Assembly (NCBI GenBank): GCA_963737065.1
Contig: CAVTRC010000001.1
Location: 160,001-224,000, forward strand
Origin: Candidatus Eremiobacteria bacterium
GTDB taxonomy: Bacteria; Vulcanimicrobiota; Vulcanimicrobiia; Vulcanimicrobiales; Vulcanimicrobiaceae
Direction: 5' to 3'
Length of the DNA stretch: 64,000 nt
Part shown: positions 8,229 to 15,246 of the stretch, in pieces
Layout of the letters: each line of letters opens with the position of its first letter
Numbering within the stretch: position 1 is the first letter of the stretch
The notes under the pieces: model-generated
The model's database searches: none
Told to the model about the DNA's origin: nothing
The model's input: only the letters and a program-made list of their open reading frames with translations
Made by a program: the position numbers and the translations under genes

Positions 8229-8732
8229 CTACTTTGCTGCGAGTCGTCGCTCGACGTACGGAACGAGGCCACCCGAGTCAATTAATTCACGCATAAACGG
8301 CGGGAACTCGGCGGACTTGTACTCGGTTCCTTTCGTCGTGTTGCGAATGACGCCGCTCGCCGGTTCGACTTCGACGGCGTCGCCGTCTTCTATGCCATCG
8401 ACTGCCTCCGCCGATTCGAAGATCGGCAAGCCGATGTTCAGCGCGTTGCGGTAAAAGATCCGCGCGAAACTTTTCGCGATCACCGCCGACGTGCCGGAGC
8501 CCTTGATCGCGATCGGCGCGACTTCGCGGCTCGAGCCGCAGCCGAAATTCGTGCCGGCGACGATGATGTCGCCCGATTTCATTTTCGCCGTGTACTGCGG
8601 ATCGAGTCCCTCGAGTGCATGTTTGCCGAGTTCGACCGGATCGATGATGTTGCAGTACTTGCCGGGGATAATGACGTCGGTGTCGACGTTCTTTCCGTAC
8701 TTGTGTGCGGTTCCGTTCAGTTTGCTTTCCAT
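8229..8732 (-). CDS. leuD: 3-isopropylmalate dehydratase/homoaconitase family small subunit
   Basis: Motifs NVDTDVIIP, NFGCGSSRE and SFARIFYRN. Confidence 0.88.
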   Translation of the reverse strand: MESKLNGTAHKYGKNVDTDVIIPGKYCNIIDPVELGKHALEGLDPQYTAKMKSGDIIVAGTNFGCGSSREVAPIAIKGSGTSAVIAKSFARIFYRNALNIGLPIFESAEAVDGIEDGDAVEVEPASGVIRNTTKGTEYKSAEFPPFMRELIDSGGLVPYVERRLAAK

Positions 8733-10016
8733 CTATACTCCCGCCAGTTCTAAGACGCGGGGATCGGTGATTTTTCCGGTTAGTGCGGATACCGCGCACG
8801 TAGCGGGCGAGGCGAGATACACTTCGGACTTCGGCGAACCCATGCGGCCGACATAGTTACGATTCGTCGTCGAGATCGCACGTTCTCCATCGCCGAGCGT
8901 GCCCATATGTCCGCCGAAACAGGCGCCGCATCCGGGCGTATTCACGGCGCAACCCGCTCCCGCGAGCGTCGTAAGCACGCCTTCGGACGCCGCCTGCATC
9001 CAGACTTCTTGCGATCCGGGATTGACGATCACGCGAACGTTCGACGCGATCTTCTTTCCGTCGAGAATCTTCGCCACGATCCGCAGATCATCGATGTAGC
9101 CGTTCGTGCACGACCCGATGAAGACTTGATCCACTTCGATCTTGTCGCGCGCGACCTCGGAGATCGGATGCACGTTGTCCGGCGTGTGCGGGCAGGCGAC
9201 TTGCGGTTCGAGCTGGTCGACGTCGATTTCAATCGTACGCTCGTAGTTCGCGTCCGCGTCTGCGCGCTCGACGATGAACGGACGATCCGTACGCTCCTTC
9301 ACGAATGCAACGGCTTTTTCGTCGGCGTGGAAGATGCCGTTCTTCGCGCCGGCTTCGATTGCCATGTTCGCCATCGTGAAGCGGCCGGTAACCGAAAGAT
9401 TGTCGACCGTCGTGCCGTGATATTCGATCGCGCGATAGGTCGCGCCGTCGATCCCCAGTTCGCCGACCGTTCGCAACATGAGATCTTTCGCGTACACCAT
9501 GCGGCCGAGCTCGCCGTTGTAGACGATCTTGATCGTCCCCGGGACTTTCAACCACACTTCGCCGAGGACGAACGCTGCCGCGATATCCGTCGATCCCATG
9601 CCGGTCGCAAACGCGCCGAGCGCGCCGTACGTACAGGTGTGCGAATCGCCGCCGACGATAACCTCACCGGGTGCGACGAGTCCTTGTTGCGGCAAAACGA
9701 CGTGCTCGATCCCGCCGCGCCCGACATCGAAGAAATGCGTGATCTTCTGCTCGGCGGCGAAGTCTTTCATCAGCTTTGCGAGCTTTGCGGATTGCGCGTC
9801 TTTCGCCGGAACGAAATGATCCTCGACGAGCGCAATCTTGTCGCGATCGAAGACGGTCGAAGCGCCTTTCATGTTCCGCATAACGCCGATTGCAACGGCG
9901 GCGGAAAGTTCGTTTGCGAGCACCAAGTCGACGTTCGCGTTGATAATTTGGCCGGGCTCAATGCGATCGAGACCGGCGTGGCGGGCGAGTATTTTTTCGG
10001 TGAGTGTCATCCCCAT
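8733..10016 (-). CDS. leuC: 3-isopropylmalate dehydratase/homoaconitase family large subunit (short LeuC2/HacA type)
   Basis: Motifs DSHTCTYGA, IGSCTNG, PGCGACFG and STTNRNYVGRMG. Confidence 0.88.
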   Translation of the reverse strand: MGMTLTEKILARHAGLDRIEPGQIINANVDLVLANELSAAVAIGVMRNMKGASTVFDRDKIALVEDHFVPAKDAQSAKLAKLMKDFAAEQKITHFFDVGRGGIEHVVLPQQGLVAPGEVIVGGDSHTCTYGALGAFATGMGSTDIAAAFVLGEVWLKVPGTIKIVYNGELGRMVYAKDLMLRTVGELGIDGATYRAIEYHGTTVDNLSVTGRFTMANMAIEAGAKNGIFHADEKAVAFVKERTDRPFIVERADADANYERTIEIDVDQLEPQVACPHTPDNVHPISEVARDKIEVDQVFIGSCTNGYIDDLRIVAKILDGKKIASNVRVIVNPGSQEVWMQAASEGVLTTLAGAGCAVNTPGCGACFGGHMGTLGDGERAISTTNRNYVGRMGSPKSEVYLASPATCAVSALTGKITDPRVLELAGV

Positions 10017-10057
10017 AGGCAAGCGGTTCTTGGCGCATCGTGCAGAATCCCGGGCTC

Positions 10058-10480
10058 ATGATTCTCAGCTCGGCCGCCGAGCGCAAGGCACTTCTGGAGC
10101 GCAGTTCAACAGTTGCCGTAGTCGGTGCGTCCGCAAAACCGGACCGCCCGAGCCACGGCGTGTTTGCATACCTTCGCGCGCATGGCTACGATGTGACGCC
10201 TATCGCGCCGAAACTTGACGAGCTTCACGGGGTCAAGGCATACCCGAATCTCACCGCGTACGCCGCGGAGCGCGGTGCGCCGGACGTGGTTGACGTCTTT
10301 CGTAAACCCTCGGAGGTACTTCCGATCGTCGACGAAGCGGTCGCGGTCGGCGCCAAAGCGATTTGGTTTCAGCTCGGCGTGATCAACGAGGAAGCAATCA
10401 ACCGCGCAGATAGGGCCGGTTTAGCGGTCGTTGTCGACAAGTGTATGAAGGTGGAGCACCGTGATCGCGTATCCGGATGA
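10058..10480 (+). CDS. CoA-binding protein (YccU-like)
   Basis: Motifs VAVVGAS.KPDRPS, DVVDVFR, WFQLGV and DKCMKVEH. Confidence 0.9.
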   Translation: MILSSAAERKALLERSSTVAVVGASAKPDRPSHGVFAYLRAHGYDVTPIAPKLDELHGVKAYPNLTAYAAERGAPDVVDVFRKPSEVLPIVDEAVAVGAKAIWFQLGVINEEAINRADRAGLAVVVDKCMKVEHRDRVSG

Positions 10481-11612
10481 ATCGCGGCGGCTCGATGAAA
10501 CGTTGTTACGGTACATCGAGCGCTGGCGCAGCACGGGAGAAGCGATGACGGACGGCGAGTTCAACGATCTCGCCCTCACGATCTTTGCGTACCAGCTTCA
10601 GTACAATACGCCCTACGCGCAGTATTGCGCTTCGTTGGATGTTACGCGCGAAAACTTCCCGTCGCAATGGGAAGAAATTCCGTCGCTGCCGAGCGCCGCG
10701 TTCAAAGAAACGCGACTCGCGACATTCGATCCGCTCACCGCGGCAGCCGTCTTCGAAACAAGCGGTACGACGCGCGGCGAAGGCGGCCGGCATTATATGG
10801 AGACGACCGCAATCTACGACGCATCGTTGTTAGCAACGTTCAGCGCGTTCATGCTGTCGGATCATGCGTCGCTGCGATACCTCAACCTCGTGCCGAACCC
10901 CGCCGAGAATCCGCACTCGTCGCTCGGTTACATGATGGCGAAGGTGTCGCAGCAATTCGGTGACGGACGAACGGGCTGGTTCATCAGCAACGGCGTGCTG
11001 GACGTCGAATCACTCATCGCGGAACTGCAGACGGCCGCCGAGCGCGATCGTCCTGTGTGCATCGCAACGACGTCCTTCGCGCTCGTACATCTGCTCGACG
11101 CGCTGGAACAACGGGCGCGCTACTTCGCGCTGCCCGCCGGCTCGCGTATCATGGAAACCGGCGGCTTCAAGGGACGCTCGCGCTACGTCGATCGTTTCGA
11201 ACTGTACCGAACGACCGCGGAACGGTTGGGCACGAGGCTTGAAACGATCGTTTCGGAATACGGTATGACCGAACTCAGTTCGCAATACTACGACGACGTC
11301 TTGGTGCGGCGCGCGGGTGCGCATGGGACGGAACCCCGATATAAGACGCCTCCGCCCTGGATGCGCGCCCGCGTTGTCGGCGCGGATGGAAAGACCTTAC
11401 CGCATGGGACGGCCGGCGCGCTGGTTCACGTCGATCTCGCGAACCGTTCGTCGTGTATCGCAATCCAAACCGAAGATGTCGGTGTCGAATTCGCGCCGTC
11501 GATCTACGGGCAACGCATCGTCCTGATGGGACGCGACGCCGGCGCCTCGTTGCGCGGCTGTTCGCTCACCGCCGAGGATCTCGCCGTGCCCGATCACCGC
11601 ATCCTGCGATGA
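10461..11612 (+). CDS. LuxE/PaaK-like acyl-protein synthetase
   Basis: Motifs FETSGTT, METGGFKGR, SEYGMTELSSQYY, DLAN, IQTEDVG and LRGCS. Confidence 0.85.
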   Translation: MIAYPDESRRLDETLLRYIERWRSTGEAMTDGEFNDLALTIFAYQLQYNTPYAQYCASLDVTRENFPSQWEEIPSLPSAAFKETRLATFDPLTAAAVFETSGTTRGEGGRHYMETTAIYDASLLATFSAFMLSDHASLRYLNLVPNPAENPHSSLGYMMAKVSQQFGDGRTGWFISNGVLDVESLIAELQTAAERDRPVCIATTSFALVHLLDALEQRARYFALPAGSRIMETGGFKGRSRYVDRFELYRTTAERLGTRLETIVSEYGMTELSSQYYDDVLVRRAGAHGTEPRYKTPPPWMRARVVGADGKTLPHGTAGALVHVDLANRSSCIAIQTEDVGVEFAPSIYGQRIVLMGRDAGASLRGCSLTAEDLAVPDHRILR

Positions 11613-11718
11613 TGGGGCACCAATACACCTCCTGTGCGGTGCCTGATCACCGCATCCTGCGATGATGGGGCACGAATACACCTCCTGTGCGGTGCCCGAT
11701 CACCGCATCCTGCGATGA
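11586..11718. repeat. 2.5 tandem copies of a 53-bp palindromic unit
   Basis: GTGCCCGATCACCGCATCCTGCGATGATGGGGCACCAATACACCTCCTGTGCG at 11586, a copy with 2 mismatches at 11639, and a partial copy at 11692. Confidence 0.95.
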
Positions 11719-12935
11719 CCGCTCTTGCGGCGGTGCCGGCGCGGCGGATTATCGCGGCGGTTTCCGGCGCGGCGGCGCGGTGGGCCGACGCGGATTTTCC
11801 TCCGCGCGTGCGGGTTCTCGATTCGATCGTGAAGCGGACCGGATACTCGGTTCCCGTCGTCGAGTACGCGCTCGATCAGCTCTTCACCGCGGTGAACGCC
11901 GCTGACCTCGAAGCAACGATCGCGAACGAACTGGGATCGGTCGATATTCTGGACCGATTTGTCGAACGCACGTCGCGAAGCAAAGCGCGTGCGCGTCCGG
12001 TGGGATCGGTATGCGTCATTTCCAGCCGTACGACGATCGGCGTCGCGATCGTTCCGGCCGTCTTTGCGCTGTGCGCCAAATGCGACGTGCTCGTGAAGGA
12101 CCGCGAAGACGGCATCGTGCGCGGCTTTTTCACCACGCTGTGCGACGAGCTCGATGAGTTCGTAACCGCGGCTCGCGCCGGCGCGTGGCGCGGCGAGGAC
12201 CATGCGGTCGATCTCGCGCAGTTCGGCGTCGTCGTTGCGTTCGGCAGCGATTCGACGTTGGCGCGCATCGCGAAAAACGCGGCGCCGAGCGCGTTTATCG
12301 GCTACGGATCCAAGGCGACGATCGGGTACGCCGGCCGCGATGCGCTCTCCGATGAGGCGAACGTGAAGGCGATCGCTCAGTGCGCTGCGCGCGATCTCGT
12401 GCTCTACGAAAGCCAAGGTTGCCTGTCGTTGCATGCGCTCTTCGTAGAACACGGCGGTGCGGTAACGCCGCAGCGCTTCTGCACGCTCCTCGCCGAAGCG
12501 GTCGAACGCGCCGCGGTCGAATTTCCGCCGGGACCACGCGATGTCCGCGCCAGCGCGCGCATCGCACATGCACGCAAACTCGCCGCATTTCGCTCGGCGA
12601 CGGGCCGTGGCGCGGTTTTTTCAGACGAACGCGCAAGTTATCTCGCGGTCCTCGATCCTCCGCCGAGCGAGCCGCCGGCGTTTCTGCCGCGCGCGCTGTC
12701 GATACACACGGTGAATTCGCCGGATGATGCCGTCGCATACGTGCGCCGGCATGAACTTTCGCTTGAAGCCATCGCTGTTGCGGGCGTTCGCGATGATATC
12801 GTCGATGCGGCGCTGTCGCTCAGCGTCAATCGCATCACCGCATTCGGTGAACTGCAGCGTCCGCCGGCAAGCGGAAGCCACGGCGGACGCGCGCGCATCG
12901 CCGATTTCGTTCGCTGGGTCAGCTTCGAAACGTGA
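11715..12935 (+). CDS. LuxC-like acyl-CoA/acyl-protein reductase
   Basis: ALDH-like fold motifs VVAFGSD, FIGYGSK and the catalytic-Cys region RDLVLYESQGCLS, with C-terminal HGGR..DFVRW. Directly follows the LuxE-like gene. Confidence 0.8.
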   Translation: MTALAAVPARRIIAAVSGAAARWADADFPPRVRVLDSIVKRTGYSVPVVEYALDQLFTAVNAADLEATIANELGSVDILDRFVERTSRSKARARPVGSVCVISSRTTIGVAIVPAVFALCAKCDVLVKDREDGIVRGFFTTLCDELDEFVTAARAGAWRGEDHAVDLAQFGVVVAFGSDSTLARIAKNAAPSAFIGYGSKATIGYAGRDALSDEANVKAIAQCAARDLVLYESQGCLSLHALFVEHGGAVTPQRFCTLLAEAVERAAVEFPPGPRDVRASARIAHARKLAAFRSATGRGAVFSDERASYLAVLDPPPSEPPAFLPRALSIHTVNSPDDAVAYVRRHELSLEAIAVAGVRDDIVDAALSLSVNRITAFGELQRPPASGSHGGRARIADFVRWVSFET

Positions 12936-14215
12936 ACGACGAATTCGAAGCCGTGCGCGGGCCGATCCCCGGGCCGCGCACTACCGCGTTGCACGCGCAG
13001 CTCGCCGAATACGAATCGCAGAACGTCACGTATCTGAGCGATGAGTTCCCGGTTTTTTGGGAGACGGCATCGGGTTCGAGCGTGACGGACGTCGACGGCA
13101 ACCGCTATATCGATCTCACGTCGGCGTTCGGCGTTGCCAGCGTCGGTCATGCGAATCGGAGCGTGACCGCGGCCATCGCGCGGCAGGCCGCGACGCTCAT
13201 GCACGGCATGGGCGACGTGCATCCCACCGAAGTTCGTTCGCGTTTGCTCGAGCGGCTCGCGGGACTGCTTCCCACCGGACTGACCAAAACGTTTCTTGCG
13301 ACAACCGGATCCGAAGCGATCGAGGCGGCGTTGAAAACCGCGATCATGGCGAGCGGTAAGCATCGTTTCCTCGCGTATCGCGGCGCGTATCACGGGCTGT
13401 CGCTCGGTGCGCTCACCGTATGCGGGATCGACAAGTTCGTCGACCGCTTCCGCGGACTCGTTCCCGGCGTGACGACGCTGCTCCACTATCCCGACGCGCA
13501 ACGCATCACGCTCGATGAAGCAACCGCGCAACTCGAACGGGAAGCCGGAGATTGCAACGACATTGCGGCGCTCGTCGTCGAGCCGCTGCAAGGACGCGGC
13601 GGGTGCATCGTTCCGCCGGGCGGCTATCTTACAGCGCTTCGCCGCTTCTGCGACGAGCGCGGCATCATCATGATCGTCGACGAGATCTACACGGGGTTCG
13701 GCCGCACCGGCTGCTGGTTTGCGTGCGAAGCGGAAGCCGTCGTACCCGATATCGTCTGCATCGGGAAAGCGATGGGCGGAGGATTTCCGATCAGCGCGGC
13801 CGTTGGGCGGCCGGCGATTATGGACCGGTGGCCGCGTTCGTCCGGCGAAGCGCTGCACACGTCGACCTATTTAGGCAATCCGATGGGCTGTTCGGCCGCG
13901 CTCGCGACGATTGAGGAAGTGGAACGCGAGGATCTCCCGAAACGCGCGCGCGAGCTCGGCGACGTCGTCGGCTTGCAGCTCGAGCGGTTTCTGGCGCGCG
14001 AATCGGTCGTCGCGGTCCGCGGGCGCGGCATGATGTGGGGCGTCCAACTTCAGAGCGCCGAGGATGCGGGCCGCGTTGTGAAACGCGCGTTGGCGCGCGG
14101 TGTGATTCTTCTTCAATCGGGGCCGGCGGGCGACGTGCTGTCGATCACACCGCCGCTTGTTATCGATCGGCCCGTACTTTTACGTGCTCTCGACATCATC
14201 AACGAGGAACTGTGA
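12932..14215 (+). CDS. Class III PLP-dependent aminotransferase (GabT/ArgD family)
   Basis: Motifs DVDGNRYIDL, TGSEAIE, YHG, EPLQGRGG, DEIYTGFGRTG and GKAMGGG. Confidence 0.93.
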   Translation: MNDEFEAVRGPIPGPRTTALHAQLAEYESQNVTYLSDEFPVFWETASGSSVTDVDGNRYIDLTSAFGVASVGHANRSVTAAIARQAATLMHGMGDVHPTEVRSRLLERLAGLLPTGLTKTFLATTGSEAIEAALKTAIMASGKHRFLAYRGAYHGLSLGALTVCGIDKFVDRFRGLVPGVTTLLHYPDAQRITLDEATAQLEREAGDCNDIAALVVEPLQGRGGCIVPPGGYLTALRRFCDERGIIMIVDEIYTGFGRTGCWFACEAEAVVPDIVCIGKAMGGGFPISAAVGRPAIMDRWPRSSGEALHTSTYLGNPMGCSAALATIEEVEREDLPKRARELGDVVGLQLERFLARESVVAVRGRGMMWGVQLQSAEDAGRVVKRALARGVILLQSGPAGDVLSITPPLVIDRPVLLRALDIINEEL

Positions 14216-15246
14216 AAACATATCGCGTTGGCATCAGCGGCGCCGGCTTCGGCGTAAAAGCACATCTTCCGGCGCTGCTTGCGCATCCGCGCTTCGATGT
14301 CGTGGCCGTTGCTTCACCATCATCGGCGCAGGCCGTTGCCAAGGAACGAAACATTCCGCATGCATTCTCGAGCGCTGCTGAAATGGTCGATGGCTGCGAA
14401 CTGGACGCAGTGGTCGTCGCGTCGCCGCCGTTCGCGCATCGCGACGATGTGCTGGCGGCGCTCGACGTGCGCAAGCACGTATTGTGCGAAAAACCGTTTG
14501 CGCTCAACGTCGAGGAGGCTGAAGAAATGCTCGCGGCGTCGCTCAATGCGCAGAGCGCCTGCGGCGTCGCGCACGAGTTTCGTTTCGTACCGCAGCGTAT
14601 GGCGATCAAGCAACTCGTCGAGAATGGGCACTTGACGCCGCTTCGCGAGATCGAGATCACGCAACTCGGCACATTCTTACGATGCGACGGCACGCGGTCA
14701 CGCGGCTGGTGGTTCGAACGCCAACGCGGCGGCGGCGTTGCCGGTGCGTTGATGTCGCATGTGATCGATAGCGCGAACTGGACGATCGGACGGCCGCCGA
14801 AGTCCGTCACCGGTCTGCTCCGTACGGCGAACGCGCAGCGTACCGATGCAGCCGGCATCTTCACGAGCACCTCAGACGACGGCGCCTTCGCGTTACTCGA
14901 TTACGGCGACGGGTTGATCGGACGGCTGTCGGTGGACGCCGCTGTTGCGGTCGAATCGTTCACGCTCGCCGTACACGCCGAGAACCGCACGGCGGTTGCG
15001 AGCGGCCAAACGATCGTTGATATGACGCTGTTCTCTATCGATGATGAAGAGACGAACGAACTGGAATGCAAGCCGTCGCCGTATGCGAAGTTCAGCAGCA
15101 TCAATGCCAACGTTCCGCTGCTGATGGAACTGTACGACGAATGGATCAAGCAGATCGAAACGGGCGCCAGCGCGCTGCCGAGCTTTGAGGACGCCTTGGA
15201 AACACAACGCGTGCTGGCGGCGATCGGCTATACCGCGGCATCCTAG
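14212..15246 (+). CDS. Gfo/Idh/MocA family oxidoreductase
   Basis: Motifs GAGFG, KHVLCEKP and GGG..SHVID; GTG overlaps the upstream stop. Confidence 0.9.
   Translation: MKTYRVGISGAGFGVKAHLPALLAHPRFDVVAVASPSSAQAVAKERNIPHAFSSAAEMVDGCELDAVVVASPPFAHRDDVLAALDVRKHVLCEKPFALNVEEAEEMLAASLNAQSACGVAHEFRFVPQRMAIKQLVENGHLTPLREIEITQLGTFLRCDGTRSRGWWFERQRGGGVAGALMSHVIDSANWTIGRPPKSVTGLLRTANAQRTDAAGIFTSTSDDGAFALLDYGDGLIGRLSVDAAVAVESFTLAVHAENRTAVASGQTIVDMTLFSIDDEETNELECKPSPYAKFSSINANVPLLMELYDEWIKQIETGASALPSFEDALETQRVLAAIGYTAAS

Follow-up and report, generated by a model that had tools for sequence, protein, structure and literature searches.

The canonical queuosine pathway is well established, and it is equally well established that LuxE adenylates a carboxylic acid, that LuxC reduces the acyl group to an aldehyde, and that class III aminotransferases interconvert aldehydes and terminal amines. 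Queuosine synthesis has been described as requiring QueD, QueE, QueC, and QueF (PMC11130926). The locus considered here occupies positions 10,058 to 15,246 of a 64,000-nucleotide stretch (the window) of contig CAVTRC010000001.1, positions 160,001 to 224,000, from a Candidatus Eremiobacteria bacterium of the class Vulcanimicrobiia (assembly GCA_963737065.1). It contains adjoining genes for a LuxE-like acyl-protein synthetase, a LuxC-like acyl-thioester reductase, and a class III aminotransferase, referred to below as the trio. Comparison of genomes suggests that the trio probably takes the place of QueC and QueF when queuosine is made de novo, converting 7-carboxy-7-deazaguanine (CDG) to preQ1. 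Like QueC, whose chemistry starts with activation of a carboxylate by ATP, it would begin with such an activation.

Queuosine genes and a conserved trio in Vulcanimicrobiia

The source genome (3.08 Mb, 95.3% complete), whose close homologues are by name from Vulcanimicrobiota/Eremiobacterota, carries genes for steps on both sides of the proposed conversion. FolE type IA had no match in this genome, and the step is filled by a FolK-FolE2 fusion (L063:10809-12260; G000:C1 2175808-2177259; FolE2 domain E 4e-64). QueD scored above the TIGR03367 cut-off and is encoded next to QueE in a queD-queE operon, Tgt scored above the TIGR00430 cut-off, and QueA, QueG, and four GUN transfer RNAs (tRNAs) are present. 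Compared with a Z. mobilis-type chain, Tgt keeps the Asp-x-Cys and GLSVG motifs, in which Cys158 and Val233 presumably mark a bacterial preQ1-type enzyme. QueF was not found in this genome, and the search for QueC returned off-target matches alone (E of at least 2e-5). Because QueE makes an acid, CDG, and Tgt needs the aminomethyl base preQ1, the gap in this genome is exactly an acid-to-amine conversion.

The phylum sample comprised 121 genomes, 58 of the class (the source genome included) and 63 others. Within the class QueE was detected in 58/58 genomes, QueF in 0/58, QueA in all 41 sampled, and QueC in two of the 58 as weak matches (E 3e-29 and 2e-24); among the 63 others, each of the 16 genomes with QueE also carries QueC. 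Ten of the 41 class genomes (G038, G068, G086, G094, G096, G100, G044, G111, G112, and G120) have an additional QueA-family gene, a divergent one (E 1e-66 to 1e-79). LuxE was present in every class genome and, as weak matches, in four of the other 63. Among the other 57 class genomes, a single query recovered LuxC from 54, and in the three misses a LuxC-like open reading frame (ORF) lies between luxE and the aminotransferase gene; the aminotransferase was found in 56 of the 57 and is frameshifted in the remaining one. luxC adjoins the aminotransferase gene in 53/53 genomes in which both were detected. luxE adjoins luxC in 30/54, and in one genus the two are frequently 160-220 kb apart.

The genes at the two ends of the locus are less constant. 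The CoA-binding gene occurs in 11 of the 21 class loci compared, usually behind a metY-like (Cys_Met_Meta_PP) gene, is missing from every one of the six loci from f3, the most distant family, and had no match near luxE in loci outside Vulcanimicrobiota. The Gfo/Idh/MocA gene occurs in 10 of the 21, is missing from the f3 loci and from both luxC-aminotransferase loci of genus g4, and outside Vulcanimicrobiota gave weak (48-56 bit) matches in three loci. Because the outer genes drop out across class loci, the unit is one of three genes with housekeeping-like behaviour: luxE-luxC-aminotransferase is conserved, and the CoA-binding gene and the Gfo/Idh/MocA gene ride along as passengers outside the pathway. 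A first-pass annotation had drawn all five genes as one operon; its middle three travel together, the outer two do not travel with them, and the five-gene operon was rejected as the functional unit. The same annotation had coupled the aminotransferase to the lux genes in an acid-to-aldehyde-to-amine pathway without luciferase. That synteny recurs in other genomes, and the chemistry is supported by the invariable luxC-aminotransferase adjacency and by an aminotransferase-LuxE fusion (P0263). The fatty, amino-lipid, or omega-amino acid substrates it had suggested are unsupported, gene clustering and phyletic pattern pointing to CDG.

In the proposed route, FolE2, QueD, and QueE would convert GTP to CDG, which the LuxE-like enzyme would activate with ATP to CDG-AMP and then bind as a thioester on Cys367. 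Transfer of the acyl group from LuxE Cys367 to LuxC Cys236 would allow the LuxC-like enzyme to reduce it, with NAD(P)H as the hydride source, to 7-formyl-7-deazaguanine, from which the aminotransferase would form preQ1 by pyridoxal phosphate (PLP) transamination; Tgt, QueA, and QueG would complete queuosine on tRNA-His/Asp/Asn/Tyr. From the comparison of genomes we infer CDG as the substrate, an aldehyde as the intermediate, preQ1 as the product, and likewise an amino donor. Literature searches, with subscription reviews and bioRxiv supplements outside their reach, returned no paper tying LuxE/LuxC or an aminotransferase to preQ1 synthesis, and in the available part of a QueF review 7-formyl-7-deazaguanine is mentioned solely as a by-product formed by QueF mutants (PMC13740343). 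Most likely, the class-wide core module is a hitherto undescribed way of reaching preQ1 without QueC and QueF, assembled from enzyme families that are already known.

LuxE contexts and queuosine genes in other phyla

A profile search of the wider family gave 2864 cluster representatives, and 15 long ones were scanned for fusions: seven are LuxE-LuxC fusions, three join a zinc-dependent alcohol dehydrogenase to LuxE (Zn-ADH-LuxE), and one is the aminotransferase-LuxE fusion mentioned above. Genome context was analyzed at the best 80 of at least 596 luxE loci. A thiamin-associated clade accounts for 33 of the 80 (L064-L098; support 99 in the LuxE tree, a FastTree tree with 19 class loci dropped) and is separate from the clade of the window. 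Most of its loci carry an NMT1/THI5 ABC transporter and a short-chain dehydrogenase/reductase (SDR), some have thiD, thiE, or thiM, and a scan of 16 thiamin-type loci detected thiamin pyrophosphate (TPP) riboswitches in 13. The clade occurs in Pseudomonadota and Bacillota (for example L072:6728-12908, L083:6731-10404, and L065:4895-10274), some loci have a xanthine/uracil-family permease or thiW, and Zn-ADH-LuxE fusions (P0133, P0151) form its sister group. This TPP-controlled luxE-luxC clade likely provides an undescribed thiamin salvage step from a heteroaryl acid to an alcohol; a single literature search found no paper on such salvage.

Another role to weigh for the trio is salvage or repair, with the acid of some other heteroaromatic cofactor, be it a pterin carboxylate or a pyrimidine or thiazole of thiamin, being turned into the aminomethyl compound. 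The thiamin genes and riboswitches of this sister LuxE-LuxC clade, together with a folK gene that lies divergently beside the Myxococcota-type operon, lend that role some substance. It is nevertheless highly improbable, since the thiamin clade is well separated, retains QueC and QueF, and is without the aminotransferase of the window's clade, and no TPP riboswitch was found in the window. Thiamin salvage was rejected for the window locus on the separation of the LuxE clades.

A third clade, associated with homocitrate synthase and aconitase, makes up three of the 80 loci and spans three phyla (L104:1031-9582, L106:1206-9426, and L116:3-6788); its operon contains a homocitrate-synthase-like gene, large and small aconitase subunits, and a flavoprotein, with a B12 radical SAM protein in L104 and L106. 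The remaining loci include two kinds of class III aminotransferase, that of the window's clade and that of an unrelated second clade, whose gene immediately follows luxE-luxC in Binatia, Eisenbacteria, and Nitrospiria. That luxE-luxC has gained an aminotransferase on two separate occasions favours acid-to-amine chemistry. Two Sumerlaeota loci (L118:6902-9251 and L131:6914-9315) have a class I/II aminotransferase gene after luxE, and no luxC was detected in the vicinity; QueE and QueA are present in both genomes, which gave no match to QueC or QueF. For six loci (L113, L114, L115, L100, L107, and L102) the title of the record (Verrucomicrobiia, Acidiferrales, Spirochaetales, Gammaproteobacteria) is at odds with the placement in the trees (rows of Vulcanimicrobiota, Myxococcota, and Gemmatimonadota), and they were not counted as extra phyla.

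Fifty of the 80 luxE genomes, of unstated completeness, were searched for que genes: 39 non-thiamin genomes and 11 thiamin-type controls, with eight Vulcanimicrobiota loci (by title or close match to the class) and 22 of the 33 thiamin-type loci standing outside the count of 39. The clade aminotransferase, with its motifs, is present in 26 of the 39, commonly unlinked to luxE. These 26 genomes have no QueF, one canonical QueC, 24 QueA, and 22 QueE (17 with the L111 query and five more with TIGR04508). Genomes with the second aminotransferase clade (n = 6) have QueF in none, QueC in one, and QueE in five, and the sole QueF among the 39 belongs to a homocitrate-type genome. In the thiamin-type controls, QueF is found in 10/11, QueC in 9/11, and the clade aminotransferase in 0/11. 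At L278:5498-8279 in G148, canonical QueC has an FmrO-like methyltransferase gene behind it, together with one for a divergent TGT paralogue, a possible deazaguanine nucleic-acid modification cassette. At L275:4888-6742 in G112, close to the end of a contig, a divergent QueC-like gene comes after a PfkB/nucleoside deoxyribosyltransferase fusion, and the surroundings resemble a mobile or defence island.

A metagenome scan with the aminotransferase alignment yielded 80 loci, 32 of the clade and 48 of other class III enzymes, the two groups being similar in mean length. queE lies beside the aminotransferase gene or in a gene run with it in 12 of the 32 clade loci compared with none of the 48 others, and luxE or luxC is present in nine and none, respectively. 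Locus L212 was assigned to the clade by eye and by 487 bits on the clade profile (the motif pattern alone gave 11/31 vs. 1/49), and L229, a borderline clade member without queE, was kept among the 48. Clustering with queE was seen in about five unrelated lineages, namely a nine-locus lineage, L192/L111, L212, L221, and L123. At the genome loci L111 and L123 queE is beside the aminotransferase gene or luxE, the L111 QueE scoring above the TIGR04349 cut-off, and in L212 (38% GC) the run aminotransferase-luxE-luxC-queD-queE has tight or overlapping junctions.

The trio enzymes, their likely substrate, and the layout of the locus

Among the families listed, none of the five proteins scored above an NCBIfam equivalog cut-off, and the lux-like pair fell far below (49.5 vs. 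550 bits for LuxE and 40.9 vs. 750 bits for LuxC). The LuxE residues Lys237, Arg358, and Cys367 (codon 11559-11561) are invariant across 89 homologues and align with Lys238, Arg355, and Cys364 of the P. phosphoreum LuxC-LuxE complex 7XC6, the catalytic residues of which were taken from PMC9157457. The catalytic cysteine previously placed in the QGCLS motif of LuxC is retained, Cys236 (codon 12420-12422) aligning with the catalytic cysteine of 7XC6 LuxC. An AlphaFold model of LuxE (pLDDT 92.5) has a flexible C-terminal cysteine loop, and its closest folds in a fold search were PaaK, ClxA, and BT_0428, with aryl-acid ligases heading the list. Since luminous LuxE is likewise PaaK-like (PMC9157457), this result is compatible with CDG but non-discriminating. 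The absence of luxAB and luxD, noted earlier for the window, extends to the genome, where neither the luciferase family PF00296 nor the LuxD family PF02273 had a match anywhere (genome 95.3% complete).

The aminotransferase is below every listed NCBIfam cut-off and in a quick tree belongs to a distinct clade (support 98) with members in Vulcanimicrobiota, Myxococcota, Verrucomicrobiota, and Omnitrophota. Its motifs are GDVH, QGRGG, DEIYTG (DEIY/FTG), and EALHT, with no Arg before xxPP; His91, Asp95, and the EALHT motif are retained across the clade, and the PLP lysine Lys279 and pyridine-binding Asp250 are invariant in alignment A2 (K270/D241 of its first row). Four pocket positions differ from the putrescine aminotransferase 4UOX (PatA): the enzyme carries Leu156, Arg222, Tyr253, and Ser404 in place of Lys, Glu, Gln, and Arg, respectively. 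At these positions the Glu/Arg switch and the carboxylate-binding Arg of GabT/ArgD/PatA-type omega-aminotransferases, as we take their roles to be, are not kept. One guess is that the acidic residues retained across the clade read the guanine face.

The atypical site also fits an alternative in which the trio acts on CDG or another QueDE product and ends in something other than tRNA-bound preQ1, for example a free deazapurine metabolite, or in which the PLP reaction is a different one, queuosine being obtained by salvage. We consider this unlikely, although CDG is used without QueC in the tubercidin and roseomycin pathways (bioRxiv 10.64898/2026.04.15.718813) and many transporters of queuosine precursors are still unidentified (PMC11130926). 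Such a role sits poorly with a trio that is single-copy, near-universal in the class, and housekeeping-like, and with the retention of QueA in 41/41 class genomes. No tailoring genes are conserved around the trio, and for salvage, YhhQ was not found in the source genome and in the class nothing scored above its cut-off.

It is improbable that the trio makes a fatty amine or amino-lipid by reducing and aminating a fatty, dicarboxylic, or omega-amino acid, in the manner of a tambjamine tail, and that the que link is a coincidence. The sole characterized LuxE/LuxC uses myristate (PMC9157457), TabE with TabA and TamH yields dodecylamine (bioRxiv 2025.08.11.669332), and Vulcanimicrobium alpinus, a cultured member, has unidentified lipids (PMC9758169). 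However, no acyl carrier protein (ACP), acyltransferase, LuxD, or fatty acyl-AMP ligase-ACP is found among the conserved neighbours, and both the queE clustering and the absence of QueC and QueF would be left unexplained. An acyl-ACP-reductase-like and PigE-like aminotransferase pair elsewhere in the genome also counts against it. In that second candidate aldehyde-to-amine pair (L059:4649-7792; G000:C1 2062648-2065800) a PigE/putrescine-type class III aminotransferase lies near a protein matching the N-terminal part of PigE, which we take to be acyl-ACP-reductase-like. At L057:3610-6483 (G000:C1 593606-596329) a putrescine-aminotransferase-like gene seems to be frameshifted and to share its frame with the aldehyde dehydrogenase gene that lies downstream, which is possibly an assembly error.

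Several points weigh against conversion of CDG to preQ1 by the trio. The LuxE family alone does not fix the substrate because the subfamily also appears in thiamin and homocitrate-synthase contexts, and another CDG-derived amine is possible because some natural-product pathways use CDG without QueC. The source genome's own QueE, whose best matches are QueE models, scores below all QueE equivalog cut-offs, and the searches for QueD and Tgt covered this genome alone. Here the trio (C1, ~170 kb) and queDE (C1, ~770 kb) are 600 kb apart; no compared locus of families f1 and f2 has queE within the retrieved stretch, and in family f3 queE is 12-21 kb from the trio, not adjacent. The class-wide pattern of trio, QueC, and QueF is one inherited event, and nine of the 12 queE-aminotransferase metagenome loci belong to one lineage (57-70% identical); kin are not independent, and a Fisher p value, which ignores kinship, is not relied on for the metagenome counts. 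QueE was not found in four of the 26 clade genomes (G121, G136, G147, and G148; completeness unstated), and three have divergent QueC-like proteins. Canonical QueC occurs in G148, beside a TGT paralogue, and in G140, on a short queC-queD-queE-folE contig; both genes may belong to DNA-modification cassettes. No Rfam match to a preQ1 riboswitch was found in the window, five genome loci, and 15 further loci, and among viral contigs 44 pattern matches included no homologue.

ORF and Pfam checks confirmed the five ORFs of the earlier description, all on the + strand, with their families and three overlapping junctions (20 nt, GTGA, and GTGA; Table 1). The likely start of luxC is the ATG at 11715. 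It is preceded by a 53-bp repeat found nowhere else in the genome, the region of which folds into a strong hairpin (z -6.1). On translation every extra unit is an 18-codon mini-ORF with ATGA stop/start overlaps, two of these being chained, so that luxE-luxC coupling could be kept across the repeat.

Table 1. Features of the locus, in window coordinates
Feature	Position	Strand	Basis or remark
CoA_binding_2 (PF13380) gene	10058-10480	+	Pfam; co-oriented passenger
LuxE-like adenylating/acyl-protein synthetase, proposed to activate CDG	10461-11612	+	PF04443, E 2e-14
53-bp tandem unit x2.5 in the luxE-luxC gap	11586-11718	+	TRF
LuxC-like acyl-thioester reductase, proposed CDG-thioester to 7-formyl-7-deazaguanine	11715-12935	+	PF05893, E 3e-39
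Class III PLP aminotransferase, proposed 7-formyl-7-deazaguanine to preQ1	12932-14215	+	Aminotran_3 (PF00202), E 2e-98
Gfo/Idh/MocA oxidoreductase	14212-15246	+	Pfam; co-oriented passenger

Aconitase-family (leuCD-like) genes lie divergent from the trio at 8229-10022. They suggest a carrier-free amino-acid route, from alpha-aminoadipate or glutamate to lysine or ornithine, and the best NCBIfam matches of the aminotransferase include acetylornithine and gamma-aminobutyrate transaminases. Such a route is extremely improbable: the genome has LysA above its cut-off and an ornithine aminotransferase, no LysX, and a single leuCD pair, and the aminotransferase is without the arginines that presumably bind amino-acid carboxylates. 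Lysine or ornithine synthesis via the adjacent leuCD-like genes was rejected on the presence of LysA, the absence of LysX, and the one leuCD pair.

Implications and comparison with known systems

If the trio does make preQ1 from CDG, numerous orphan luxE/luxC genes would gain a first role outside luminescence, and a natural enzyme cascade from aryl acid to aminomethyl product would be available; QueF has been described as too narrow for biocatalysis (PMC13740343). Lineages may also have been mis-scored, because genomes without queC and queF are scored as salvagers of queuosine, a micronutrient. Producers could thus be hidden among Vulcanimicrobiia, many Gemmatimonadota, and some Myxococcota, Acidobacteriota, and Verrucomicrobiota. 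The balance tips slightly toward a broader proposal, that a wide LuxE/LuxC subfamily acts as a CoA-free heteroaromatic-acid reductase, serving a nitrile-free preQ1 route with the aminotransferase (at least seven phyla, a whole soil class) and thiamin-precursor salvage to alcohols with SDR or Zn-ADH under TPP riboswitches. On that view, the fatty-acid reductase of luminous bacteria would be one specialized relative of a housekeeping enzyme pair, the direction of descent being left aside.

The trio enzymes can each be set beside a described relative. PatA, GabT, and ArgD share the fold family, PLP lysine, and Asp250 with the window aminotransferase, which is ~35% identical at best, belongs to its own clade, and has altered pocket residues. 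With LuxC-LuxE of luminous P. phosphoreum (7XC6; PMC9157457) the families and catalytic residues are common and the same acid-to-aldehyde relay is expected; however, the window pair is far below the equivalog cut-offs and without luxAB and luxD, and pairs of its type are coupled to an aminotransferase and queE where the luminous pair is coupled to luciferase. The tambjamine enzymes TabE and TabA, or TamA and TamH, proceed like the trio from a thioester through an aldehyde to class III transamination, and TabE clusters with LuxC (bioRxiv 2025.08.11.669332). That system depends on an acyl carrier protein, handles a C12 chain, belongs to secondary metabolism, and has no LuxE, whereas the trio consists of core genes with no linked ACP. 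QueC and QueF would share with the trio the input CDG and the output preQ1 (PMC11130926, PMC13740343), yet the trio enzymes are unrelated to them, the proposed intermediate is an aldehyde rather than a nitrile, and nitrogen would enter by transamination. A route that bypasses preQ0 in this way would leave no shared precursor for archaeosine or for ADG/preQ0 DNA marks.

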